Part shown: positions 1 through 58,531 of the stretch, piece by piece
How the letters are laid out: the number at the start of each line of letters is the position of its first letter
Numbering within the stretch: the first letter of the stretch is position 1
DNA from: a virus
Lineage: Duplodnaviria > Caudoviricetes
DNA: 62,290 nt
Virus record (IMG/VR): IMGVR_UViG_3300005529_000038
Span: 1 to 62,290 of that record
Strand: one strand, 5' to 3'
The notes under the pieces: generated by a model
Seen by the model: the letters and a program-made list of their open reading frames with translations, nothing else
The model's database searches: none
Told to the model about the DNA's origin: nothing
Made by a program: the position numbers and the translations under genes

Positions 1-326
1 GACCATTGCTTTGCTCGACGCGCCACACCTATCCGGCCATCCCCCGCCCCTCCTGACGACGCCTTGCCCATCCGAGCGTTACCCGACCCGGCCGGCCGCT
101 CCCCGCCATGCCTTTGCAAAAACCGCCGGTCCATTCCTTGCCTGCCTTGCCTCGTCTCGCCGGGCCTGGACCTGGCTGTCATTCCTGGCCGCGCCAGCCC
201 GACCATGCCTTTGCACAAGCTGCCATGCCACACCGCACCGGAGCGCGGACTCGCCTCGCCTGCCACGCCGGGCCTCTCATGGCACGCCTAGCCAATCCGG
301 AGAGCGCCGCACCATTCCTGCCATGC
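1..326 (-). repeat. GG(Y)-NN pentamer array 1 (about 6 units, runs off the window edge), candidate guide ncRNA
   Basis: Minus strand reads ta-GGC-at-GGCA-GGA-at-GGT-gc-GGC-gc...GGC-ga-GGC-ga...GGT-gc-GGT-gt-GGC-at... with 5-nt periodicity and 4-nt GGCA/GGCC/GGCT phase breaks near 320, 261, 221, 196, 143, 94 and 35; no credible ORF. Confidence 0.85.
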
Positions 327-824
327 CTAAGCCGCCGGGCGATCGTCACGCGCGGCATCTTCAAATGCGCGTTCGGCTTCGACCGCGATGTCGAGCATCC
401 GCTCGAAATGCGATGCGAGGCCGAACACCTTTGCGAGTGATCGACCGCGTGACAATGCGCCCTTCACTCTGGAAAGTTCGTCTTCGAGTTGGGCCCGAGC
501 CGCGGCACCGCGCCGCGCGATGCGCATCGTTTCGATGTAGCCCGTCTCGTCTTGCGACTGATCCGCGACGTAGTAAGGCGCGCTGATTTTGACGTCCTCG
601 AAGACGATCTGCAGCCGCACTTCCTTGATCAACGATCGCGCGGTGTCGCGCCAATGGGCCTCAGCTGCTTTCTGAATGTCCCATTGGAAACAGCTGTGCA
701 GCACGCTCTTGGGGTTGCGGGCAGCCGCGACGACCGTGTCAGGATGGACGCGGCCACTGCGGTCTGCGCAGGCCTTGATGGCCTTCGCCCTCAATTCCAG
801 GAGTGTCGTTGCTTTCTTCGCCAT
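327..824 (-). CDS. Conserved phage protein, companion of the RAMP-like gene
   Basis: 165 aa, motif HPDTVVAAARNPKSVLHSCFQWD..AAEAHW...ARSLI; lies between the RAMP-like gene and array 1. Confidence 0.8.
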   Translation of the reverse strand: MAKKATTLLELRAKAIKACADRSGRVHPDTVVAAARNPKSVLHSCFQWDIQKAAEAHWRDTARSLIKEVRLQIVFEDVKISAPYYVADQSQDETGYIETMRIARRGAAARAQLEDELSRVKGALSRGRSLAKVFGLASHFERMLDIAVEAERAFEDAARDDRPAA

Positions 825-1458
825 GGTTCACCGTCTGAGAGTTTTGGCGCCGGCGCGATCACGCGAAACTGACCGTATGATCCGCCCTTCTGCGGGCGCC
901 AGTCACCGAGACCGACAATGATGCCGGCGGCGGCGAGCAGGTTCACGATCTGCGATTCCTTGATCAGCGATGCAACGAACCTAACCTCGACAGTGCAGCA
1001 CCACGACGGGAATATCGGCCGCGTGCGAACGTCTGGCGTGCGCGCCATGTCGCTCGATCGCACCATCGCCATGAACATTTCCGGCAGGCCGAAGACGTTG
1101 ACCTGCGTCGACGCGATCGACGTAAGCGCGACATCTGCGCTTTCGTCGCGCCGGGAATATCAACCGCGGCAGCGGCCAGCGCTTTGCCAAATGCGTTGCT
1201 CGGATAGTGAAACAGCGCGGGCTCGGCGTTCGATCTGTTCTGATACAAGGCCTCGACGAATTCGGCCTTCGGGTCATGCTTCAGCGATTCCGACTTTTCG
1301 GCGCTGTTCTTTTTGCCGCTCGGTAGCAACAATTCATGCCACGCTTTTGAAGCGAAACGATGCATGACGAGCGGACTTGTCCCGACCAGGTTTGCCCTGA
1401 TCGTACCCATTCGAATTTCCTGGATCTCGACTGCGGTCTCTTTTGCCTTCTTCACCAT
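791..1458 (-). CDS. Cas7/RAMP-like RNA-binding protein (Vipr-like), 1-nt frameshift near 1123-1127
   Basis: N-terminal beta strand NLVGTSPLVMH, internal YPSNAFGKAL and VRTRPIFPSW, and C-terminal glycine-rich loop AGIIVGLGDWRPQKGGSYGQFRV typical of RAMPs; joins ORFs 964..1713 and 791..1078; AGAGGAG RBS upstream of ATG 1458. Confidence 0.75.
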
Positions 1459-1528
1459 GACAACGAAAAACTCCTCTGTTGTTCGCATTTGGTTGAGATT
1501 ATCCGGCCCAACCTTCCGGTCTTTGAAA

Positions 1529-1595
1529 TGCCGGCCCTGCCATGCCATGCCCAGCGAGGCCTTACCGCTCCACATCAATCCGCGCCTGCCTCGCC
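1529..1595 (-). repeat. GG(Y)-NN pentamer array 2 (single unit of 10 pentamers)
   Basis: taa-GGC-ga-GGCA-GGC gc GGA tt GAT gt GGA gc GGT aa GGC ct CGC tg GGC at GGC at GGC ag-GGCC-GGC. Confidence 0.85.
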
Positions 1596-2924
1596 TTAAC
1601 TCTTGTCCGCGTCCCTGATCTCGCGCTGCTTCTCGGCCAGCCGCTCCTGCAACGCCTCGCGCGATTCGGAGGAGACGTTGCACTTGTTGCGCATCGTCTT
1701 CTCGCCGGACCATTGCTTGTCGCCAGCATCGGCGTCGACCAGCGCCTCGATCCAGCCTTGTGCGTGCTCGATATATTCGCGCTCATTGGCCGGAGCCCTG
1801 GGTGAGTCAGCCGGCTTGTCCTTCTCGGCTGTGGATGGCTTCGACTTGTCCACCGTTTCAACAGGCTTGGCCTTGTCGGCCGTCTTGCTGCCGGCATCGG
1901 CTTCTGTAGAAGTGGCCGGGCTCGCGGATGCTTTGCCTCCTGCATGCGTCCCGGCCTCCGAAGATTGCGCGGTCGTGGAGACCTCTTCGGCAGATTTCTT
2001 CGCTGACGAATTCGCCGCCTCGTCAGCGCTCGCGGCCTGGCCTTTGCCCGCCTCCCCGGCTGCGTTGGCCGGGCCGCTAGTCACCTCGCCAGTCGCTGGA
2101 TCGATGTGCTCGCCCTTCGGCGGGAAGCAATCATCGGCTGTTGCCATGCCGTCGGCGATGGCCTTGCCCATCGCGATGATCTTGGCAATGTCGGGCGCCA
2201 GCCAGTCCTTGCGCGCGCGGCCGAGCACAGCCTCGGCGCGGCTCACGTCGACGCCGATATTGGCAAGGCTCGCCGCGATCCTCTCGCGCCACTTCGCAAG
2301 GTCTTTGCCGATCTTCTCGACCAGCGAGTTCTTGGCCTGGTCGAACGCGTAGTCGGCGAAGGTCTGCAAGCTGTTGACGACGACGTTGCGGACGGCTTTC
2401 GAAACGCCGATCTGGAACGCAATGTCGAGCCGGCGCGCGTCGTCCGTGCCGCCCATCTTCGAACCGCCCTTGTTCTGTTGGAACGGGCGGGTCAGCGCAT
2501 AGCCGCTTTCGTAGTCGATGAACCTGGCATAGATCAACCAGCTCGGCCCGAGATCGATGACGCGGGTATCGATCTCGCAATTGCCATAGATGCGCGCGAG
2601 GTCATTGGCGAGCTTGATCGACGGGCCTTCGATGAAGTCCTGCACCCACTCGTCTTTGCCGGTCTCCTTGTTCTTGATCTTTTTGCGCACCGGGAATCGA
2701 TAGTACCAATCATCGCCGGCGGCGGCACCGAGCGCGGCGAGCTTCTGCAGCACGCGCTGTTCATCGCGGTAAATCGCGACCTTCTGCGCGCCGAACATGC
2801 GGTCGACACCGCCGGACGACATTGGCATGACCTGCAAGCCGTTGTCCTCGCGCGGCGCGGCTTGTGCGAAGGCATCGAGCGCACTGCGCCTGGACTCGCG
2901 TTCATCGTGGTCGATCGTGCTCAT
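1596..2924 (-). CDS. Putative single-strand annealing/recombination protein with low-complexity C-terminus
   Basis: Motifs EGPSIKLANDLARIYGN and IGVSKAVRNVV; same operon as the YqaJ exonuclease; GGAGAG RBS before ATG 2924. Confidence 0.55.
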   Translation of the reverse strand: MSTIDHDERESRRSALDAFAQAAPREDNGLQVMPMSSGGVDRMFGAQKVAIYRDEQRVLQKLAALGAAAGDDWYYRFPVRKKIKNKETGKDEWVQDFIEGPSIKLANDLARIYGNCEIDTRVIDLGPSWLIYARFIDYESGYALTRPFQQNKGGSKMGGTDDARRLDIAFQIGVSKAVRNVVVNSLQTFADYAFDQAKNSLVEKIGKDLAKWRERIAASLANIGVDVSRAEAVLGRARKDWLAPDIAKIIAMGKAIADGMATADDCFPPKGEHIDPATGEVTSGPANAAGEAGKGQAASADEAANSSAKKSAEEVSTTAQSSEAGTHAGGKASASPATSTEADAGSKTADKAKPVETVDKSKPSTAEKDKPADSPRAPANEREYIEHAQGWIEALVDADAGDKQWSGEKTMRNKCNVSSESREALQERLAEKQREIRDADKS

Positions 2925-2932
2925 GGTCTCTC

Positions 2933-3712
2933 CTATTTGCGCCAGCGCGCTTTGTCGGTTTCGAAGATGCGGGCGCCGGTGATGGAGTGGCGGCCGGATT
3001 TGACGTAGGCGCGGAGCGCCTTCTCGATATCGGCCGCGGCGAGGAACGGCCGCAGCGCCTCCAGGTCGATGATATTGAGGTCGACGCTGTCGAAGGTCCA
3101 TTCGGTCTGCAGGCCGGCGGTGCCGCCGGTGGTGCGGGTGTGCGCGAGCGATGCCATCGGTGCGGCGGCTTCGCGTTCCTTGGCATTGGCGAAGGCGGTC
3201 AGGGCGCTCGCCTGCGCATCGGCCTTGATCGCCTCGACCGCATGCACGATTCCTGGCGCGGTCTCCGTCTTGGCCTTGGCCTCCTCGGCCTTGCGCAGCG
3301 CTTCGGCGGCGGCCTCAGCTGCGGCCTTGGCCTGCGCTTCGCGCGCCAGCCGTTCGCGCTCGGCCTTCTTTTTCAGATACGCGGTCCCGACCTTGTCGAG
3401 CACGGCGGCGCGGGCCAATGCACGCTGCTGCAGGCCAACCTTGAAAAAGGATTGGATGATGTTGCCGGCATCGATAATGGGCCGCTTTTCATCTTCGCGG
3501 ATGCCGTCAGTTTTCTTCTCAAAGGCCTTGAGGTCGGTGATGGTCTTGGTGAGCAGCGCCAGATCCTCTTCGTCCTCGAGGACCGGCGGCGTCTCGATGG
3601 CCTCCAGCGCCGCCAGCTCGGTTTCGAGGTGGGCATAGTCGGCCTTGAGCGATTCCGCGGTGACGATCGGCGGTCGCTGGTTGTCCTTCGGCGTGATGGC
3701 GCGCTCAGTCAT
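2933..3712 (-). CDS. Coiled-coil phage protein of the recombination module
   Basis: 259 aa, Ala/Glu/Lys-rich helix, C-terminal ALRAYVKSG..ITGARIFE; translationally coupled to its neighbours. Confidence 0.7.
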   Translation of the reverse strand: MTERAITPKDNQRPPIVTAESLKADYAHLETELAALEAIETPPVLEDEEDLALLTKTITDLKAFEKKTDGIREDEKRPIIDAGNIIQSFFKVGLQQRALARAAVLDKVGTAYLKKKAERERLAREAQAKAAAEAAAEALRKAEEAKAKTETAPGIVHAVEAIKADAQASALTAFANAKEREAAAPMASLAHTRTTGGTAGLQTEWTFDSVDLNIIDLEALRPFLAAADIEKALRAYVKSGRHSITGARIFETDKARWRK

Positions 3713-4659
3713 TTCTTCAAGATCCTCATGACGCGGTGGCCGCCCGGCGGGACCACATAGCTGCCGCGCTCCTGGTAGCGGTGGGAGATCCTGCGGCCGC
3801 CGGCGATCGTGATGATGCTGGCCTCGCCGAAGGCGTCGGCGAGCACGGTCTTGGCCTGCGCCTCCGCCTTCTCGGCTTCTTTCTTCATCTGGCGGGCGGC
3901 CTCGAGCTGATCGACCCAGCCAGGCAATTCGTTGTTGGCCGACAGATCAAGCTCGATGCCATTGTCGCGCGGATAGAGCGCCTTGATGATCTCGCCGTCG
4001 CGCTCGCTGTCGACCGGCGGCTGCAAGCCGGTGTCGAGATAGTTGGTGCGGAACGCCGCGACGCGCTCGCAAATCTTCTCCCAGGCCGCTTCGTTGCGCT
4101 CGAGATAGAACGGCTCGAGCGTCCACTTGAAGGCGTCGACCACCAGCGCGGCGATCAGGCCGCGGGCGCCGTCGGCGAGCATCGTCTCGGTCAAGGTCTG
4201 AAGCTGGTAGGCGAGCGGAGCGACGACAGGGCTGGCTTTGTCGCCGGGGTCCGCTCGCCAATGCAGGTCAAAGAACGGGCGTGACACCACCTTGGCCTGC
4301 ACGATCGTGATGCCGGGCAAACCGGGAATGATCGCGGCGCCGTCCGGCGTCGCGCCGATCCGCTTCTCAACATCACGGAAATAAACCTTGGCGCGGCGCA
4401 CCTCCCAATCCGGATAAAGATCCTCGATTGCGGAGAACACGGCCGCCTCGCCCCAGAGCCCGCGGCGCATCGCGTCGGTGGTCTCCTGCTGCGGCAGCTT
4501 GCCAAGCTTCTCGGCCCAGACCCGCACCGCGGTGTGGCCGTCGAAGATCGATTCGCCGCAGACGGCAGAGACGTCGGAGGCGGTGACGTCCTGCATGCGC
4601 AGCGCGAGCCAGGTCTCGCGGTCGCGCGCCGGGTCGATGGAAATGCGCTGGATCGTCAT
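3709..4659 (-). CDS. YqaJ-like viral recombinase / lambda-exonuclease family
   Basis: WLALRMQDVTASDV, MRRGLWGEAAV, IGATPDG, QAK and YQLQ motifs. Confidence 0.85.
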   Translation of the reverse strand: MTIQRISIDPARDRETWLALRMQDVTASDVSAVCGESIFDGHTAVRVWAEKLGKLPQQETTDAMRRGLWGEAAVFSAIEDLYPDWEVRRAKVYFRDVEKRIGATPDGAAIIPGLPGITIVQAKVVSRPFFDLHWRADPGDKASPVVAPLAYQLQTLTETMLADGARGLIAALVVDAFKWTLEPFYLERNEAAWEKICERVAAFRTNYLDTGLQPPVDSERDGEIIKALYPRDNGIELDLSANNELPGWVDQLEAARQMKKEAEKAEAQAKTVLADAFGEASIITIAGGRRISHRYQERGSYVVPPGGHRVMRILKK

Positions 4660-5009
4660 CAGTCTGGCACCTTCGGGTTGGGGTGGTTGCCGCCAGCCCG
4701 CAGCGCCAACCGAGAGACCTCAGCGGCATACTCGATATCGTGCTCTTGCGCCTTGGATGCGTAGTGAGCGAGCGCGTGACCGGCATTCCGATCGCGCAGG
4801 CGCATGACGAAAAACTCAGTGTCGATAGTGTCGCCCCAATCGATCACGCCAGCGCGCTCGAGCAGCGCGACCGCGTCATGGATTGCCTGGAGATCGGGGA
4901 CGTCGCCGTCGCCGCCATCATAAAGCTTTTCGATCTCAGCGAGCCGGCGGTTCTTGATCAGGCCATATTTGCCGTGGCCGTCGGCGTTGAGGTTGCGATC
5001 TAGTTTCAT
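4659..5009 (-). CDS. Hypothetical phage protein
   Basis: 116 aa, overlapping start/stop with neighbours, EFFVMRLRD..A..AL..YA. Confidence 0.7.
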   Translation of the reverse strand: MKLDRNLNADGHGKYGLIKNRRLAEIEKLYDGGDGDVPDLQAIHDAVALLERAGVIDWGDTIDTEFFVMRLRDRNAGHALAHYASKAQEHDIEYAAEVSRLALRAGGNHPNPKVPD

Positions 5010-5290
5010 CGGCTGTCGACCTCGACCTGCGGCCAGCGCTCGCCGGTGACGCGATAGACGCCGGTGATCTCTTTCTGGCCGGCGGCGTCCATCTGGCGTG
5101 CGAGGCTGACAGCCTCCGTCGCCTTGATGAACGCGATATGCGTCGGTCCAAGATAGACAGCGACCGCGTTTGGATCGTGCGGATTCTCTGGATCGCGGCG
5201 CAGCGTCAGCGCCGTGCCAGCACTGAGGGATGCAACAAGCCGCTCACTCTTGCGATGCTGCATCCCCACCAATGTTGCGAGCTGCCTCAT
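5006..5290 (-). CDS. HIRAN domain protein
   Basis: LVGMQHR...LTLRRDPENPHDPNAVAVY...HIAFI; AGGAGG RBS before ATG 5290. Confidence 0.85.
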   Translation of the reverse strand: MRQLATLVGMQHRKSERLVASLSAGTALTLRRDPENPHDPNAVAVYLGPTHIAFIKATEAVSLARQMDAAGQKEITGVYRVTGERWPQVEVDSR

Positions 5291-5360
5291 AGTGCCCCTC
5301 CTGGCCAAGCCCTTGCCATTGCCCGCCACGCCATCACGTTCCTAGCCATGCCGGCCTCGC
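5291..5360 (-). repeat. GG(Y)-NN pentamer array 3
   Basis: ta-GGC-ga-GGCC-GGC at GGC ta GGA ac GTG at GGC gt GGC...GGC aa...GGC ca GGA gg GGC ac; starts at the stop codon of the upstream gene. Confidence 0.75.
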
Positions 5361-5576
5361 CTAATCATCTTCCGACTCCGGTTCCTCGAAGGTTTGCAGT
5401 CCCCACCACTTGCTCATGCAGGCCGTGCAGAATTGCGCGGCATGCTTGTCGTTGAACAGGATCAGCGGCACTTCGCGCTCGCCGATCGACGTGAAGCAGT
5501 AGGAGCACAGCGCCGATTGCGTTGGGCTCCAGGCCACGCGGCTCCAATCGAAGCCGGGTTTTGGCTTGAGCGTCAT
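5361..5576 (-). CDS. Small Zn-finger-like protein
   Basis: CSYC...CTAC; ATGA overlap with the upstream gene. Confidence 0.65.
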   Translation of the reverse strand: MTLKPKPGFDWSRVAWSPTQSALCSYCFTSIGEREVPLILFNDKHAAQFCTACMSKWWGLQTFEEPESEDD

Positions 5577-5848
5577 GCGGTGACCAGATCGTACGCCTTG
5601 GCGAATTCGGCCTCGACGCAAAACGCCATCTGACTGAGCTGGTGGGCCAGGGCGTGAAGATCGCCGTTAAGCTTGATCACCTCATCATGCCGGCGCATCG
5701 CCCGTGCGACCTTGACGGCGCGGCTGATCTCGACCGCCTTGAGCAGCGCAATGTCGATCTCGACCTGGAGGTAAATGGTCCGGCTGTATTCGTCCGGCTG
5801 TTCCAAAACTGAAACTGCTGTGCGCAAGAAATCTGCCACCACGCGCAT
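5573..5848 (-). CDS. Hypothetical protein, first gene of the leftward operon
   Basis: GGAG RBS; directly downstream of the leftward promoter. Confidence 0.55.
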   Translation of the reverse strand: MRVVADFLRTAVSVLEQPDEYSRTIYLQVEIDIALLKAVEISRAVKVARAMRRHDEVIKLNGDLHALAHQLSQMAFCVEAEFAKAYDLVTA

Positions 5849-5869
5849 CTGAAACACTCCTGAGTTGCG

Positions 5870-5985
5870 TTAACGATATGCATGGGGAATTACCCAAGTC
5901 AACCCGGATTACACCAAATAAAATTTAAGTGGAACACCGTGCAAGTCACGGTTGACAAAATGGGTAATTTCCCATCCATCATTCG
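5870..5985. promoter_or_regulatory. Divergent promoters with two inverted operator copies
   Basis: TTGACA at 5952 (+) and TTGACT at 5897-5902 (-); TGGGGAATTACCCA (5883-5896) and TGGGTAATTTCCCA (5961-5974) are 13/14 inverted copies lying in the promoter spacers. Confidence 0.7.
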
Positions 5986-5987
5986 GC

Positions 5988-6227
5988 ATGGTCAACATCG
6001 AGCAATTTTTCCAACTGGTCGAGCGCTACGCGGCCGTTAAGGGTCTGTCGGAGTCGACAGTCTCTCTGCGGCTGTTCAACGACGGCCAGCGACTGAAGAT
6101 CATGCGCGATGGTGGCGATCTCGGCCTGAGAAAGACGGCAGCTGCGGTGCAGCAAATGTCCGACGACTGGCCGGAGGGCGTCGCTTGGCCGAAGGGCATC
6201 AAGCGACCGAGGACGAAGGTGCAGTAG
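5988..6227 (+). CDS. Cro-like HTH regulator
   Basis: 79 aa, GLSESTVSLRLFNDG..L, C-terminal WPEGVAWP; first gene after the rightward promoter. Confidence 0.7.
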   Translation: MVNIEQFFQLVERYAAVKGLSESTVSLRLFNDGQRLKIMRDGGDLGLRKTAAAVQQMSDDWPEGVAWPKGIKRPRTKVQ

Positions 6228-6354: not shown

Positions 6355-6852
6355 ATGCCGGAAGGCGATTGGACAGATTCGCGCATCAGGCTTCTCAGGC
6401 AGCTGATCGAAGCTGGCGCATCGGCCGGGCAGGCGCGCGATCAGATCAACGCGGCGATGGGCACTTCGTTTTCCCGTAACGCGGTCATCGGCAAGATGAG
6501 GCGGCTCGGCATCGTCTCGCAAAACAAGTGGGGCAAGCAGCCGGCGGACACCGTCAAGCTGAAACAGCCGAAAGAGTCCAAGCGCACCATCACCGTCCGC
6601 CACGCCGTGCCATCGCAGTCGCCCAAGCTGCCGGCGATGAAGGCCGCGCCGCCCCCGCAGGAAGTGATCAAGCCGTTCAAGCTACGCGAGCTTTACGGCG
6701 TCGCGGCCGAGCGCTGCACCTACACCGATGATTGCGATGAGCCGCCGGTCAGGGGCCGGTTCTACTGCGAAGCGCATTGCATGATCGTCTATCGGCCGCC
6801 GACGCAGCCGAGACAACCGCAACGTCCCCACCACCGTCCAACCAGGAGATGA
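6355..6852 (+). CDS. GcrA-family cell-cycle regulator-like protein
   Basis: WTDSRIRLLRQL..G.SA....SRNAVIGKMRRLG and C-terminal YCEAHC..VY. Confidence 0.8.
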   Translation: MPEGDWTDSRIRLLRQLIEAGASAGQARDQINAAMGTSFSRNAVIGKMRRLGIVSQNKWGKQPADTVKLKQPKESKRTITVRHAVPSQSPKLPAMKAAPPPQEVIKPFKLRELYGVAAERCTYTDDCDEPPVRGRFYCEAHCMIVYRPPTQPRQPQRPHHRPTRR

Positions 6853-6856
6853 CGAC

Positions 6857-7387
6857 ATGGCGAAAGCCAATGGCGAAGCTGCGACCGGGCCGCAACTGTC
6901 GAACGAAATGAACGACGACCAGCGCCACAAGCTGACGTCGGACTACTGCACGCGCTATGAGGCCGCGCTCGCGGCCAAGAAAGCGGCCGACAAGGCGATC
7001 AAGGATATCGGCAAGCTGGTGAAGGCCGATCTCGGCAAGAACGGCATGCGCGACATCCGCGACATGATCGAATTGCGAGATCCTGAGGGCGAGGCCCGCA
7101 TCAAGGAAGAGATGGAGGCGCGCGCCCGCGTGCTGCGCTGGATGAACGTCCCGATGCATACGCAGACGGAGCTGTTCCCCGACGTCGATCGCCGGCCGAT
7201 CACCGAGAAGGCTTTCGGCGACGGCAAGAAAGCCGGCATCTCCGGCGCTCCGCACGCCAACCCGTACCACCCGACCAACGACGGGCACGATGCCTGGAAC
7301 AAGGGCTACATCGCCGGCCAGGACGTCAACCTCGCCAAGATCAAGCCGATCGACACCGAGGCCGCGGCCGATAGCCTGGCGAGCTGA
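6857..7387 (+). CDS. Hypothetical protein, GapR-like N-terminal helices plus RMF-like C-terminal motif
   Basis: IKDIGKLVKADLG...IRDMIELR; AFGDGKKAG...NPY...AWNKGYIAG. Confidence 0.5.
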   Translation: MAKANGEAATGPQLSNEMNDDQRHKLTSDYCTRYEAALAAKKAADKAIKDIGKLVKADLGKNGMRDIRDMIELRDPEGEARIKEEMEARARVLRWMNVPMHTQTELFPDVDRRPITEKAFGDGKKAGISGAPHANPYHPTNDGHDAWNKGYIAGQDVNLAKIKPIDTEAAADSLAS

Positions 7388-7389
7388 TC

Positions 7390-7944
7390 ATGCTGCTCGA
7401 GCGCGGTGAAGTCTGGGCCATCGATCTGTCATCGCGGAGCGCCGGGTTCGCCTATGGCGTGCCCGGCGACAAGCCGCGGCTGTGGACCGTCGACTTCATG
7501 CGCGACGGTGACCTGCATGACTTCTACGCCAACCTGACCGCCTATGCCGCGACGTTCCTGCGCGACAATCCGGTCAAGCTCGCCGCCATCGAGGAGCCGG
7601 TCGCGCCGGCGGCGGCGATGGGCCACACCAACCACAACACGACGATGATGACGATCCCGGGTTTTGCAATCGTCGTCGGCGTCGTGAAGTGTAAGAAAAT
7701 TCCGTATCAGCCGGTCCGCGTCGAGACGTGGCGCAAGCACTTCATCGGCACGGGCCGGCTCACGCACATCAAGAAGGCCGCCGAACGGCGGAAGGAAGGG
7801 AAGCGGCTCGCTGTGCAGCGCTGTCGTCAACTCGGCTGGAAGGTCGAGAACGACGACGAAGCGGACGCAGCGGGAATTTGGGATTGGGCAGGGGCTACGC
7901 ATATGGGCGCGCGGCAGGCGCGCCTGCAAATGTTTGGCAATTGA
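7390..7944 (+). CDS. RuvC-like Holliday junction resolvase
   Basis: WAIDLS..G, AAIEEP, WRKHFIG, DDEADA acidic motifs. Confidence 0.8.
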   Translation: MLLERGEVWAIDLSSRSAGFAYGVPGDKPRLWTVDFMRDGDLHDFYANLTAYAATFLRDNPVKLAAIEEPVAPAAAMGHTNHNTTMMTIPGFAIVVGVVKCKKIPYQPVRVETWRKHFIGTGRLTHIKKAAERRKEGKRLAVQRCRQLGWKVENDDEADAAGIWDWAGATHMGARQARLQMFGN

Positions 7945-7965
7945 AAAACGAGGGGGAAGCATACC

Positions 7966-8265
7966 ATGGCTAACTTCGGTGAGATGGGCGTCGCGTTGCT
8001 GGTTGCTCGGCACAGCATCGAGAATGAGATCGCGCGCGTGCGCCAGGTCGCCGGGCGGATCGGGCTGCACAAGGGCAGCGTGATGATCGCGATCGAAGGT
8101 TTCGAGCGCGACATCCACGCGATCGATGAAGCGGCGTCCTTGCTCAAGCTGATGGCCGAGCATGAGGCCGAGATCAGGGAGTTCGTGAAGCGCAAGGGCA
8201 GCGCCGGCAAGACCTGGATGGCGCGCCTGATGGATGTTGCGACGGCTGCCAGCCTGATGCTCTGA
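7966..8265 (+). CDS. Hypothetical protein
   Basis: 99 aa ORF with RBS, in operon. Confidence 0.55.
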   Translation: MANFGEMGVALLVARHSIENEIARVRQVAGRIGLHKGSVMIAIEGFERDIHAIDEAASLLKLMAEHEAEIREFVKRKGSAGKTWMARLMDVATAASLML

Positions 8266-16309: not shown

Positions 16310-16541
16310 AGCCGCCGAGATCCTCCTCGACCAGGAGATCGCCGGCCTGGACGTCGTCGAGGACGCGGCCGCGCTGGTAGTAGTGCTCCGGCCGCGGCGT
16401 TGGATCGCCGCGGGTTTTCCACACCCGCCGATAGCTACGGAGGTTCCGCTCCTCCTGCAATTCGCGCGACCACCAGCCGAGCACGAAGGCCAGCGCCAGG
16501 CCGGCAACGATCAGGATCAGCACAAGCCAGTCTGGCAGCAT
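16260..16541 (-). CDS. Small membrane protein
   Basis: N-terminal hydrophobic helix WLVLILIVAGLALAFVLGWW. Confidence 0.45.
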   Translation of the reverse strand: MLPDWLVLILIVAGLALAFVLGWWSRELQEERNLRSYRRVWKTRGDPTPRPEHYYQRGRVLDDVQAGDLLVEEDLGGFNCAGKYVPPRGPRPR

Positions 16542-53046: not shown

Positions 53047-53450
53047 TCGACTTCGCTGAGGCCGAAACCCTCCGGGCGCTGGGCCATGGCGATCTGATCG
53101 CCTGGCAACCCAAGACCCCGCGCCCTGAGCTTCGACAAATCTGGCGGTGGTTCTGCCACCTTGACGAATTCCGGGACCGGCCGCGGTTGACCGCGCCGAC
53201 AAACACGCCCGATGGACGCCTTGCCTGGCAGGTGCAGGCCCACACCAAGCGCCTGCAGCCCACCGAGATCCTGGCTTGGAGCCAGCTCGCGGCCGTCAGG
53301 CTCGAGCCATGGCACCTCGCCGCGCTGGCCTTGATTGACGATTTCTTCGTCCGGACAAGCAATGATCCGCCCAAGCCCCAGGTCCGTGCTACCGCGGAGG
53401 GGCTGAAGACGATGTTCAAGATGCTGGCGAAGGGCAGGAAATCGAAATGA
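53016..53450 (+). CDS. Tail assembly chaperone frameshift extension (GT)
   Basis: Open -1 frame with no start of its own; IWRWF..L, EILAWSQL, IDD.F. Confidence 0.65.
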   Translation, partial: EFYAGLVQEIVDFAEAETLRALGHGDLIAWQPKTPRPELRQIWRWFCHLDEFRDRPRLTAPTNTPDGRLAWQVQAHTKRLQPTEILAWSQLAAVRLEPWHLAALALIDDFFVRTSNDPPKPQVRATAEGLKTMFKMLAKGRKSK

Positions 53451-56400
53451 CCGATCTCGCGAAGGTTGGCTTTAGCGCCGATACGGCGCCGCTGCAGACC
53501 CTTAACGACCAGCTCGACACCACCAAAGACAAGGTCCGCGGCCTCAACGATGAGATGGCCAAGACCAACGCGGCCGCCGCCGGCGCCGCCACCGGGCTCA
53601 ACCAGGTCGGGGCCGCGGCACAGAACGTCAAGAACAGCGCCGCCGACACCGCGATCTCGAATGTCGGCCAGGGCCTCGCCAAGGTCACCGACGCGACCAC
53701 CGCGGCCGCAACCGGGCTCGGCAAGACGGCCGACGCGACCAAGTCGGTGTCAACGGCGCTGGATCAGAACCTGGCGCCGTCGCTGCAGCGCTCGACCGGC
53801 TTCCTATCGTCCTTCAAGCAGGCCTTCACCGACGGCTTCAACAACGCGATCAGCCAGGCCAACGCGCCGATCGCGCAGGCAGGCCAAGTCACCCGGCAGC
53901 TCGAGGACTACGTCAAGGCAACCGGCCTGTCGTACGAACAGGCTGCCGAGGCGATGAAGAAAGTCGCGACCGCAGAGACGGCGCTCAACACCACCACCAA
54001 GGACTCCGGCGGTTTCTTCAACACGCTCAAGACCACCGTGGCCGGCTTCGCGCAATCGCTGACCTCGACCAACACCGCGGTGGTCGAGCACACCGCCAAA
54101 GCCAAGGAAATGGGCGAGGCGCACCGCGAGACGGAGTCGGCCGCCAAAGAGTTGCGCGAGACGATGCACACGCTGGAGGGGCCGCTCGACGCGCTCGGCC
54201 TGCAATTCTCCACCGTCTCGCAATTTTCCGGCGCCGCGCGCGCCGGCATGCTGGCGCTCGCCGCGTCGATCGCCGGCACGGTGCTGGTCGAGCTGCAGAA
54301 GCTGACCGACGAATCCAAGACGCTCGAGACCAGGCTGCAGGGTCTCGCCGGCGTCCACATGGGCGAGCACATCGCCCAGGAATTCGAGACGGCCGTCAAG
54401 GGGGCCGAGCATCTGCCGGCCGCGCTGGCACCGGCGCTCGAGGCGCTGATCAAGCTGCAGCAGCAGAATTTCGATCCGCACGTCATCCAAGCCGCCGGCA
54501 AGGAATTCGAGAGCGTTGGCGTTAGTGCGCAGCGTTCGATCGATGCGGTGCAGAGCCTATACGAATCGATCCGGCTTGGTGGCGCTTCCAGCGCGCAAGC
54601 GGTCGCGGCCACCACCAAGTTCTTCCAGGACTTGCAGACCCAGGGCAAGGTCACCGAGCAGACGTTCCGCTCATTGCAGGATGCATCGCCCGCGACCGCG
54701 CAGGCGATTGCCAACATCTTCACGCAAGGCCGGATGAGCGCGACGCAGTTCGCGACGACGCTCAAGGACCACCCGATCGAGATTCAGAAGGTTGTCAGTG
54801 CGCTCCAGAAGATGAAGGACGCGAACGACGACGCTTACAACGACATGATCGAAAGCCCGAAGGATCTCGAGTCCGCGCTCGAAAAGCTGAAGGGCAAGTT
54901 CATCGATCTGACCAAGCCGGCGCAGGACTCGCTGTTCGGCGTCGACCAAAAAGTTGGCATGGTCACCGAGGCGATCAACCTGCTCGCCGATGGGCTTGAT
55001 GAGCTCAACACCAGGGGCCTGCCTGGTCTCAAGCAGAGCTTCGACCTTGCCACCAACGCCTCGAAAAGCTGGGGCGACATGATCAAGGTGGTCGACGATC
55101 AGAATTCGATCTTCGGCAAGTCGCTCGAGATCGACGTCGTCGGCGCCATCGAGAAAGCGCTGATCGAACTCGGCAACTTCGCGACGCGCGCGCCGCAAGC
55201 GGTGACCGACTTCGTCAGCCAGTCGCTCACGGCGATGGGGCAATGGGGCGCCAGCTTCGTCGGCGCGATCCAGAGCGGCCTGTCCGCTGCCATGACGGCG
55301 ATCTCGAATTTTGTCAGCAGCGCGACCGCCGCGCTGCAGTCTGTTGCCAACGCGGTCTCCAATATCGCGAGCGCCGGCGGTGGCACGGGCAACAACCCGT
55401 TTGTGTCGGCGACCAACAATTATTCCAGCCCCGGCGCCGGAACGGGTGACCAGCTTGGCAGCGGCACACCCGCCGATGAAGGCCTCGCTGGCTTTGCGAC
55501 CGGCGGCAGCTTCACGGTTGGCGGCAGCGGTGGCACCGACAGCCAGCTGATCCAGTTCATGGCGACGCCTGGCGAGCAGGTCACGATCGAGCAGCCCGGC
55601 ACCTCAGGCACCGGCGGCGGTGCGCCGCAGACGCTCGGCAGCCTGATCCCGACACCGGGCACCGGAACAGGCGGGGGCACCGCGGCCGATGACATCCAGC
55701 AAGCCAAGTTCGTCGACGCGCTGAAGACCCAGACGCTTGACCTGAAAGACTCGGCGCTGGCGAACCGCAACGCGATCGTCGCCACCATCAACACCACCAC
55801 CGCGCAAATCGTCGCGGCGATCAAAACCCTGGTGGTCAGCTCCGGCGTTGCCGCCTCGACGTCGACGACGTCATCGAGCAGCGGCACCTCGGCATCGTCG
55901 AGCAGCAGCAGCGTCGCGCCCAACTCGACGGTCAGTTCTGCCGCCGGCGGTGGCGGCGGTCTATCGCCGAACATCAACAAGGACGGCCAGTTTGGCTCGC
56001 CGTGGAACATCTTTGGCGACGACAAGAGCACCACATCGTCGGCAGATCAGCAGGCCTCGCGGCCGATCAACATCCCGGCGCCGCAACAGTCAGGCCTAGC
56101 GTCAGGGCGAGGCGGGCTTGTTAAGGGCGGCACGCCCGGGGGCGCCTACAGCGTCGGCCCGGATGGCAACATGACGCCGTTTGTGCCGGGCCAGCAGCTC
56201 GGCACCAACGGGCTGCAAGCGCCAACGCCGGAGGCCTTGAGCAACCAGATCGGCAACGGCGTCGCGCAGGCGATGGCAGCGCCGCCGCTGCTCGAGCCGG
56301 GCCAGCCGGGGCAGGGCTGGGAGGTTGCCAAGGGCGGCGCGGACGTCAAAGAGCAGACCCAGACGCTGAAGCAGTCGCAGGACACCGGCTCGAAGACGGT

Positions 56401-58531
56401 CGCCGACAAGGTCACCCAGCAAATCCAGGAAACCAAGACCATCGGCGACAAGTCGACGAGCTCGCTCGACAAGGTCAGCACCGCGTCGCAGGACGCAGCG
56501 AAGGCCAGCGACGAAACCGCCAAGGCGACGGACGACGGCAACCAGCAAGCCAAGACGATCGGCGATGACACGACGAAGTCGATCGACGACGGCACCGATG
56601 CGACGAAGGGAGTCGGCGATACGACCAGGTCGGTCGGCGATGCGACGCAGCAGTCGATCGATCAGTCCGGGACGCAGGTCGCCGACGCGACCAACACCGG
56701 CTCGAGCAACATCGTCAACGCCGTTGAGCAGATGGCCAGCTCGGTCGCCAGTGCGATCGGCAGCGCGCTTGCGCAGGCGGCATCGTCGCAGACCGCGAGC
56801 CCGGCCAACGACAACGGCAACCCCATCGGCTCCAGCGGCGGAGGTGGGGACATCGGCGGCGGCACCACCGATCTCGGCAGCAGCAATCCAGGCGGCGGCG
56901 ACACCACCGACAACAGCGGCGGCGCGCCTGGCGGCTTTGCGACCGGCGGCCAGTTCTCCGTCGGGCTGCCGCGCTTCGCGACCGGCAACCAGTTCATGGT
57001 CAAGGGCCCGGGGCATGCCGATACAGAGCTGATCCAGTTCATGGCCTCGCCTGGCGAGACCATCACGATCACGCCGCCGGGCGGCACGCCGCCGCCCAAC
57101 CCGACGATGGACTCGCATCCGAACCTGGGACGCAAGAGCGGCTATGCCACCGGCGGCCAGACCACGCTGGGCGGCCTGTTCGGCACACCGAGCATGCCGG
57201 ATGGCGCGGCCAATGACCTGGTCGCGGCGCACGTTGCCGACAGCATCAACCAACAGAACGCGGACATCGGCAGCAAGATCAGCGACATGACGTTGACGCT
57301 GCTTCGCGCGACCAACGATTCGACGGACGCGATCGTCGGCAAGATCGCGAGCATGGCGAGCAGCCTGCCGATGCCTGCGCCGGCATCGTCGGCGTCGTCA
57401 TCGTCTTCGGCGCCTGCGCCTAGCAGCAGCTCGGCATCGTCCGGGCTCGATTTCTTCGGCCGCGACCAGTCCATCGCCAACGCCATCCTTTCCTCCGGCG
57501 GAACGTATGGCGTCCCGATCGGCGTCCCGGTTGGCGGCGGCAACCTGGGCGGTCCGAGTGGGCTCGCCGCGCCGACGCGCTTCGCCACGGGCGGTCAGTT
57601 CTCCGTCGGCACCACTGGCCTGCGCGGCTTCGCCACCGGCGGCCAGACCACCGTCGGCGGCGACACGGGTCCGACGTCATCAGGCAGCATCGATGCGCTG
57701 ACGGCGACGCTTGACCATCGGCAGCAAAACCAGACGCTTTCGATCAAGGACTCGATCGGCGCCAGCACCAACCGCATCTCTCAGACCATCAGCAACAATG
57801 CATCGAGGGTGACGAGCGGGCTCGACGCACTCAGCGCCGCGATCAATGCGTCGATCGACGCGGTACGCGCCAGCTCGCGCGCTTCCTCGACGCCGTCCTC
57901 GACGTCAGCTGCGTCGAGCAGCGGGTCATCGTCCAGCGATGGCGGCCTCTTGCTGTATGGTCGCGATCCGTCCATCGCCAAAGCCATCCTCGCCTCTGGT
58001 GGCACCTACGGCACGCCTGTAGGGAGCTATCAGACGGTCCTTGGACTCATGTCCGGCAAGACCCCGGGCAATGGCGGCGGCCTCTACGGCTTCGCCACCG
58101 GCGGCCAGTTCCAGATCGGCGCCGGCAACATGGCCGAGGGCGGCGCCTTCACCGTGCCCGGCGGCCAAAGCGGGTCCGACAGCGTCGACGTCGCGATCAA
58201 GGCCTCGCCGGGCGAAAAAATCTTCGTGGTGCCGCCGCAGGAGGCCAGCAAGTTCAAGGCCGCGCACGACATGGTGCGGCCGACGCTGGAGCCGATCGAC
58301 AGCTACCTGCCGCGCCCGATGAGCGTCCCCGGCAACGACAATGCCACCGCGACCCAAGCGGCGGTAAGCGGTTGGAAGGGATCGGCGTCCTATCAAGGCG
58401 AGGCCGTCGCAGGCTCCGGCATGGGCGGCGCACCGCCGGCGCCGGTGATCATCCAGGTGCAACAGGGCGTGCAGGCCGATGACTTCATCCGATCGCGCGC
58501 GCAAATCCAGAGGGCGATGAACGGGAAATGA
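53447..58531 (+). CDS. Tape measure protein
   Basis: 1694 aa, A/T/S/G-rich, multiple FATGG motifs, follows the chaperones. Confidence 0.9.
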   Translation: MTDLAKVGFSADTAPLQTLNDQLDTTKDKVRGLNDEMAKTNAAAAGAATGLNQVGAAAQNVKNSAADTAISNVGQGLAKVTDATTAAATGLGKTADATKSVSTALDQNLAPSLQRSTGFLSSFKQAFTDGFNNAISQANAPIAQAGQVTRQLEDYVKATGLSYEQAAEAMKKVATAETALNTTTKDSGGFFNTLKTTVAGFAQSLTSTNTAVVEHTAKAKEMGEAHRETESAAKELRETMHTLEGPLDALGLQFSTVSQFSGAARAGMLALAASIAGTVLVELQKLTDESKTLETRLQGLAGVHMGEHIAQEFETAVKGAEHLPAALAPALEALIKLQQQNFDPHVIQAAGKEFESVGVSAQRSIDAVQSLYESIRLGGASSAQAVAATTKFFQDLQTQGKVTEQTFRSLQDASPATAQAIANIFTQGRMSATQFATTLKDHPIEIQKVVSALQKMKDANDDAYNDMIESPKDLESALEKLKGKFIDLTKPAQDSLFGVDQKVGMVTEAINLLADGLDELNTRGLPGLKQSFDLATNASKSWGDMIKVVDDQNSIFGKSLEIDVVGAIEKALIELGNFATRAPQAVTDFVSQSLTAMGQWGASFVGAIQSGLSAAMTAISNFVSSATAALQSVANAVSNIASAGGGTGNNPFVSATNNYSSPGAGTGDQLGSGTPADEGLAGFATGGSFTVGGSGGTDSQLIQFMATPGEQVTIEQPGTSGTGGGAPQTLGSLIPTPGTGTGGGTAADDIQQAKFVDALKTQTLDLKDSALANRNAIVATINTTTAQIVAAIKTLVVSSGVAASTSTTSSSSGTSASSSSSSVAPNSTVSSAAGGGGGLSPNINKDGQFGSPWNIFGDDKSTTSSADQQASRPINIPAPQQSGLASGRGGLVKGGTPGGAYSVGPDGNMTPFVPGQQLGTNGLQAPTPEALSNQIGNGVAQAMAAPPLLEPGQPGQGWEVAKGGADVKEQTQTLKQSQDTGSKTVADKVTQQIQETKTIGDKSTSSLDKVSTASQDAAKASDETAKATDDGNQQAKTIGDDTTKSIDDGTDATKGVGDTTRSVGDATQQSIDQSGTQVADATNTGSSNIVNAVEQMASSVASAIGSALAQAASSQTASPANDNGNPIGSSGGGGDIGGGTTDLGSSNPGGGDTTDNSGGAPGGFATGGQFSVGLPRFATGNQFMVKGPGHADTELIQFMASPGETITITPPGGTPPPNPTMDSHPNLGRKSGYATGGQTTLGGLFGTPSMPDGAANDLVAAHVADSINQQNADIGSKISDMTLTLLRATNDSTDAIVGKIASMASSLPMPAPASSASSSSSAPAPSSSSASSGLDFFGRDQSIANAILSSGGTYGVPIGVPVGGGNLGGPSGLAAPTRFATGGQFSVGTTGLRGFATGGQTTVGGDTGPTSSGSIDALTATLDHRQQNQTLSIKDSIGASTNRISQTISNNASRVTSGLDALSAAINASIDAVRASSRASSTPSSTSAASSSGSSSSDGGLLLYGRDPSIAKAILASGGTYGTPVGSYQTVLGLMSGKTPGNGGGLYGFATGGQFQIGAGNMAEGGAFTVPGGQSGSDSVDVAIKASPGEKIFVVPPQEASKFKAAHDMVRPTLEPIDSYLPRPMSVPGNDNATATQAAVSGWKGSASYQGEAVAGSGMGGAPPAPVIIQVQQGVQADDFIRSRAQIQRAMNGK

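Follow-up and report, generated by a model that had tools for sequence, protein, structure and literature searches.

Ten in-phase GGY/NN pentamers at 1586..1537 on the minus strand, lying upstream of a gene for a RAMP/Cas7-like protein, very probably form a vrRNA guide unit belonging to a VIPR locus of this phage. VIPR itself is known, and this phage locus is a new example of it. Judging from its sequence, the locus runs in the order upstream vrRNA, vipr, vap-like gene and downstream array, occupying about 1595..1 of the minus strand. The copy in the window (the whole stretch of DNA analyzed, a virus record of 62,290 bp from a soil metagenome, with terminase, portal, major head and tail genes) is worn.

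VIPR, first described in 2026 in three bioRxiv preprints, is a CRISPR-related RNA-guided DNA silencer. Its parts are (i) a phage-encoded ancestral RAMP protein (Vipr); (ii) an accessory gene (vap); and (iii) vrRNAs, each with 9–16 YNNGG repeats, in which NN is hypervariable, and an invariant 3' end (bioRxiv 10.64898/2026.04.26.720920). The same preprint takes at least four tandem YNNGG beside vipr as the criterion for a vrRNA candidate, and reports 667 systems of types I–VII, with Escherichia phage SUSP1 as the exemplar of type II. According to that text, the targets are double-stranded DNA, mostly of competing phages, read as NNxNNx, i.e., with a 1-nt skip; substitutions in GGY abolish silencing, and internal degeneracy is frequent (bioRxiv 10.64898/2026.04.26.720920). 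One Vipr protomer is assigned to each repeat; its H17 and D177 read G1, R138 and W178 read G2, and a pocket containing R179 holds Y3 (bioRxiv 10.64898/2026.04.26.720927).

The original prediction had read a single-guide unit from this stretch, with ten in-phase pentamers and the dinucleotide series GC TT GT GC AA CT TG AT AT AG, and exactly this series, taken from pentamer positions 4–5, is found at 1586..1537. The pentamers are GGCGC GGATT GATGT GGAGC GGTAA GGCCT CGCTG GGCAT GGCAT GGCAG, and they are followed by GGCCGG. The tract begins at a G that it has in common with a preceding GGCAG, and is itself closed by GGCAG. That preceding word belongs to GGCGA GGCAG (1595..1586, minus strand), with which an earlier, vestigial unit ends; it overlaps the next one by 1 nt in a staggered junction, GGCAG/GC. 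Three of the ten repeats have degenerate anchors (GGA, GAT and CGC), which counts against the guide-unit reading in view of the published effect of GGY substitutions; over 1595..1537, GGY is present in 8 of 12 pentamers and the phase is unbroken. Set in the YNNGG frame, seven of the ten repeats are perfect (CGCGG, TGTGG, TAAGG, CTGGG, CATGG, CATGG, CAGGG), the final four of them consecutive, so that the tract lies within the published definition of a vrRNA candidate beside vipr. At gathering thresholds, Rfam gave no matches over the window, including none to a CRISPR direct-repeat family. The sole sequencing run that carries 300–3000 is a DNA run, possibly the source of the record; no RNA run is listed.

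We consider it exceedingly improbable that the pattern is merely chance periodicity in a G-rich spacer. When tested over the full 1500–1598 stretch, period-5 GG reached only P = 0.04, but over the core at 1530–1592 its power was 1.65 against a shuffle mean of 0.20, a value attained by none of 2000 dinucleotide-preserving shuffles. Across the window there are five regions of in-phase CC, all on the plus strand and within the first 5.4 kb. Local mononucleotide shuffles (200; a cruder and less decisive test) gave a mean of 1.6 such regions and a maximum of 6, and thus can exceed the observed count; against this, the five regions share one strand and one operon, and long perfect arrays stand at homologous positions in related phages.

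The operon in which the tract is located is a minus-strand early operon of recombination type. It includes a YqaJ/RecE-like exonuclease gene (3709..4659), a HIRAN-domain gene (5006..5329) and a gene for a 442-aa protein with no assigned function (1596..2924; phrog_3657), the TAA stop of which is at 1598..1596. The host is likely to be a soil alphaproteobacterium, because homologues of the 442-aa protein bear the name Bradyrhizobium in public records. Comparison of window positions 1–6000 with cultured phages by blastn returned a 56-nt chance-like match and nothing else, and scanning viral_contigs with the 442-aa protein as a single query gave no match, an alignment being required. The closest relatives found for the window are at 57–61% protein identity. 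Elsewhere in the window, a 1721-aa ORF in the tail region (53366–58531, plus strand) is without a PHROG match at E ≤ 1e-5, and a tRNA-Gly(TCC) lies at 16380–16465.

The gene that follows the tract, previously called RAMP-like, encodes a Vipr homologue. It spans 791..1458 (minus strand) in two frames, with an N-terminal piece at 1458..1126 and a C-terminal piece at 1135..791 (P0001), the latter aligning with residues 138–187 of SUSP1 Vipr (E 7e-10, 35% identity). In SUSP1 numbering, the C-terminal piece retains the thumb arginine R138 (in TRPIF) and the GDWR residues D177, W178 and R179, while the N-terminal piece retains the histidine of GTSPLVMH, which aligns to H17. The relationship extends to the clade, since hhalign of the clade Vipr profile (A2) against SUSP1 Vipr gave Prob 96% and E 4e-9, and the Vipr of one related locus (L047) matched it at E 1e-12. 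We located the SUSP1 VIPR locus in NC_028808.2, where GGT-NN arrays are visible. The intact orthologue in another related locus, L058, has 284 aa, is 53–60% identical to the window's vipr product and has 736 relatives at E ≤ 1e-3, without a Pfam domain. Neither a Pfam family (E ≤ 0.1) nor a PADLOC model was matched by the window piece or by the Vipr proteins of L058, L047 and SUSP1.

When cultured phages were searched with the clade Vipr by tblastn, matches were obtained in Gordonia phages ODay, Ecliptus, Pipp and UmaThurman (E 1e-16 to 1e-18), and further ones in Cyanophage Cy-LDV1, Pseudomonas phage LESphi2 and Mycobacterium phage LittleE, all in genes annotated as hypothetical. These phages are possible VIPR carriers among isolates that can be grown.

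With reference to the intact L058 orthologue, the frame of the window's vipr breaks near 1120–1130. This break is one reason to ask whether the locus is a dead relic, in which the vrRNA has decayed, the VIPR locus no longer works and any resemblance of the tract to vipr codons is due to chance; we regard such a relic as doubtful, yet a possibility to be taken seriously. In the only run with this stretch, however, one Logan contig stops at 1119 and another, independent one starts at 1127 (depths 7.1 and 10.2). As the contig break coincides with the change of frame, the frameshift may reflect an assembly join or strain mixture instead of a lesion, and the record may have fused two strain variants at 1119–1127. 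The residues that read GGY, moreover, are all retained.

Between the repeat tract and the ribosome binding site of vipr lies a tail or leader (1477..1536, minus strand), which starts with an eleventh in-phase pentamer, GGCCG, at 1536..1532. A stem of CCGGC and GCCGG had been proposed here. The pairing of CCGGC (1534..1530) with GCCGG (1507..1503) is indeed part of the predicted minimum-energy structure, which nonetheless does not stand out from those of shuffled sequences (z -0.73; 46 of 200 shuffles fold equally well). The ribosome binding site itself was correctly identified: the Shine-Dalgarno sequence GAGGAG is at 1476..1471 and the ATG at 1458. Similarity to related loci is seen in the tract and in the leader: the first ~20 nt of the tract resemble an L058 unit, and the leader stretch ATAATCTCAACCAAA resembles the leader of L058 and L070. 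The leader also contains a sigma-70-like TTCAAA-18-GATAAT (1498..1527, minus strand; one promoter-like site against 0.1 expected), which may be a separate promoter for vipr. This site sits in a stretch of ~33 nt that is apparently absent from the L058 leader. A sigma-54 promoter reading of the TGGCA...TGCA words was rejected, as the spacing is wrong.

The guide-unit interpretation draws its support from the tract, from the Vipr homology and from clean arrays beside vipr in relatives. Using an alignment (A1) of homologues of the 442-aa protein, we fetched 69 loci, in which period-5 GG arrays are found 37 times on the sense strand and three times on the antisense strand. Clean units of 11–21 GGYNN are present in L023, L032/33/59, L046 and L047; in all of these except L023, each unit closes with GGCAG, after which a conserved tail follows. 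A GGCAG junction with a 1-nt overlap parts the units in L071, L075, L088 and L092, just as at window position 1586 and within 1–340. A lone unit directly upstream of vipr, the arrangement seen in the window, recurs in L070, L071, L074, L084, L094 and L097.

Two of these loci, L046 and L047, have near-identical genes yet differ in unit number and in NN, and the dinucleotides are therefore the fast-evolving part. In the segments compared (L046:6100-9100 and L047:6000-9250), four versus two units follow vipr, and one versus five follow a ParB-like/HTH gene; in both loci the gene that accompanies Vipr is ParB-like, and almost every gene is preceded by arrays. A very large array is found in L023:8067-9412, where ~1.3 kb of continuous staggered array (271 pentamers, 83% GGY, junctions GGCTG/GC) follows first a vipr homologue (6705..7550) and then a vap-like gene (7561..8064).

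These relatives also bear on a G-rich regulatory leader that would have nothing to do with Vipr, whether as two-tier G-quadruplexes, as an R-loop-prone stretch or as the site of a TRAP-like ring protein; in the last variant, triplets with a 2-nt spacer would be bound and the leader would affect translation or termination of the downstream gene. Period-5 GG could indeed make two-quartet G-quadruplexes, and the tracts lie just upstream of ribosome binding sites and on the sense strand only. Nevertheless, we hold this explanation to be very improbable: the third position is a conserved pyrimidine (GGC/GGT), for which a G-quadruplex has no need; a vipr homologue is encoded in every locus with strict arrays of at least 20 GGC pentamers (L023, L032/33/59, L046, L047, L058 and the window); and the repeat grammar is tied experimentally to Vipr binding in SUSP1 (bioRxiv 10.64898/2026.04.26.720920, 10.64898/2026.04.26.720927). 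Switch-region-like R-loops, recombination linkers, TRAP-like ring binding and G-quadruplexes had all been entertained, and were dropped once the match to the VIPR literature was found.

Downstream of vipr is a conserved gene for a 165-aa protein (327..824, minus strand; phrog_15946), which we consider a candidate vap accessory gene. Among the 30 loci fetched by Vipr alignment (L070–L099), a homologue of this partner adjoins vipr in 24, and it does so in L023 as well. No similarity to SUSP1 vap1 was detected. The structural model of the partner is confident (pLDDT 91), with weak hints of a winged helix; Foldseek gave no match to it at E ≤ 1e-3, and a wide VIA-align search mainly returned a generic helical hairpin.

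The partner gene is followed by an eroded GGY/NN array (1..340, minus strand) that reaches the contig end and comprises 67 pentamers with several GGCAG junctions (period-5 P 0.002). Immediately upstream of the HIRAN-domain gene there is another, short GGY/NN tract (5300..5362, minus strand; period-5 P 0.0045), with GGY in 10 of 12 pentamers and four phase breaks. It is 3.8 kb from vipr and may be a stand-alone guide.

The state of the downstream array returns us to the relic. Only 60% of its pentamers have GGY and it has eight phase breaks (2.3 per 100 nt), compared with 93% and 0.4 per 100 nt in L092, and, in the upstream tract, perfect YNNGG is confined to the seven repeats listed above. Yet arrays of similar degeneracy (55–59% GGY) occur in L058 and L071, although vipr is intact in both, and internal degeneracy is described as frequent in published VIPR (bioRxiv 10.64898/2026.04.26.720920). 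We read 1586..1537 as a probable vrRNA guide unit, in a worn copy of the locus.

The original prediction proposed searching for targets with gapped patterns and comparing the hits with shuffled strings. Four skip rules were applied to the window and the related loci (~0.9 Mb; 1.87 million positions on both strands). The best scores of the tract were 16, 17 and 15 of 20 for skips of 0, 1 and 2 nt, respectively; the 3-nt rule returns the trivial self-hit. Inspection by eye had yielded no convincing match in the window, which is right only in part: the best 1-nt-skip match in all of the scanned DNA, 17/20, is in the window's own vipr, antisense to it at 1343..1371 (plus strand), over the LVMHRFASKA codons with the skipped bases at wobble positions. 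The score is marginal, a maximum of at least 17 having P = 0.035 in 1500 shuffles of the NN order. This self-match is equaled by the best non-self match, also 17.

Under the 1-nt rule there are 13 matches of at least 16 (eight distinct sequences), and all of them are antisense on one early vipr site, the conserved L-I/V-M-H-R-F-x-x-K-A codons, again with the skipped bases at wobble positions. As many as 13 such matches occurred in none of the 1500 shuffles (maximum 10, mean 0.5), a comparison in which the real matches are homologous and non-independent and the site was noticed post hoc. The convergence of the 13 best matches on one site, in wobble register, speaks against the chance resemblance that a relic would entail, whereas the P value of 0.035 is in its favor.

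For the family as a whole the excess over shuffled guides is weak. With 123 guides and the ~0.9-Mb database, matches of at least 80% numbered 10, 13, 4 and 11 for skips of 0–3 nt, against about 8 in shuffled sets (8.3 for the 1-nt rule). The top match falls in vipr for 3 of 123 guides compared with 28 of 984 shuffled ones, and there is thus no family-wide preference for vipr. Five guides, chosen because they had beaten 20 shuffles, were tested with 300 shuffles each, and three of them, all from L071, gave strong matches in other phages. One L071 guide matches 21/24 on the vipr codons for VRNSDxNxTPDV of related phages, another matches 19/20 on an AEKKGLRPP motif in a gene upstream of the 442-aa anchor gene (at least 14 loci), and a further one matches 25/30 in L034-36; in each case 0 of 300 shuffles did equally well. 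The L071 guides are located at L071:2816-2959 and 4068-4127. On these sequence comparisons, the 1-nt-skip rule does appear to work in the window's clade.

Larger collections (viral_contigs, metagenome_contigs and Bradyrhizobium genomes) were searched with the 1-nt-skip pattern of the tract. There were no exact matches in viral_contigs. The lone exact match in metagenome_contigs is on an AT-rich contig with a reverse-transcriptase-like ORF and was judged to be chance, as was the one match with at most two mismatches among 401 genomes of the genus of a Bradyrhizobium locus, which is out of register and neighbors a citrate-synthase-like ORF. Two Bradyrhizobium genomes gave two matches at up to three mismatches. 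No target at 90% or more was identified in viral_contigs, metagenome_contigs or the 401 genomes, a result that also fits a relic.

Compared with the VIPR of SUSP1, the window locus has the same kind of protein, a lone phage-encoded RAMP with the G-loop GDWR, the thumb R and the beta-1 H; the same kind of guide, made of GGY/NN pentamers; and the same layout, in which vipr is preceded by one unit and followed by a small partner gene and then an array. Vipr is about 20–35% identical between the two. The differences are that (i) the window's clade anchors its repeats with GGC, SUSP1 mostly with GGT; (ii) the window has no recognizable pseudoknot tail, and its units overlap by 1 nt; (iii) the partner gene is dissimilar to vap1; (iv) Vipr in the clade usually has a C-terminal extension of ~75 aa, which is absent from the window copy; and (v) the likely host is a soil alphaproteobacterium. 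Overlapping units have a published counterpart: the legend of Fig. S18 describes "staggered" arrays with a 1-nt overlap, each unit beginning where its predecessor ends (bioRxiv 10.64898/2026.04.26.720920), and, compared by that legend, the GGCAG/GC junctions here and GGCTG/GC in L023 are alike. With respect to class 1 CRISPR, there is no Pfam RAMP match to relate Vipr to Cas7 (Csm3/Cmr4). VIPR has a 5-nt step with three bases sequestered, in contrast to the 6-nt step with one base flipped of Cas7, and carries its repeats within the guide, whereas CRISPR spacers lie between repeats.

By analogy with the published system, the tract would be transcribed along with the early recombination-gene operon, one Vipr protomer would bind per pentamer and sequester each GGY, and the NN pairs would read double-stranded DNA with one base skipped per pair (NNxNNx...), so that transcription of the bound gene would be silenced. 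In the staggered layout, a unit would close with GGCAG and the next would begin at its G. The weakest step is the last, namely that the tract acts on the vipr of rivals or feeds back on its own. Since the code of the tract is most like early vipr codons of the clade, rival or own vipr is its most likely role; that it is aimed at vipr genes as a working anti-VIPR or self-limiting guide is nonetheless a tentative proposal, and the targeting is suggestive, not proven. Precedent exists in vrRNAs aimed at early vipr codons of relatives, for which a self-match below the non-self match is reported (bioRxiv 10.64898/2026.10.15.759431). The best matches of the tract resemble these in that they keep codon register and cover conserved codons near the start of vipr; in contrast to them, self and non-self are equal here at 17/20, the support is marginal, and the phage family and host differ.

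Taken alone, this 99-bp stretch is a worn example that introduces no new principle. VIPR is only months old, though, and its diversity is still being mapped; this locus and about 40 related ones document a large clade of soil phages, with GGC-anchored staggered arrays, a partner gene that is conserved but different, and bioinformatic targets in early genes of rivals. The locus is, in addition, a natural test of how far the anchors of a vrRNA may degenerate and of how general vipr-aimed guides are. If the proposed targeting is true, the ten dinucleotides spell the beta-1 motif P-L-I/V-M-H-R-F-x-x-K-A, which holds the guanine-reading histidine of Vipr, and the phage would shut down vipr in relatives infecting the same cell or restrain its own copy. 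Combined with the L071 guides on vipr and a recombination gene of related phages, this would amount to VIPR-versus-VIPR conflict, reported so far in enterobacterial phages, among soil alphaproteobacterial phages with staggered arrays.
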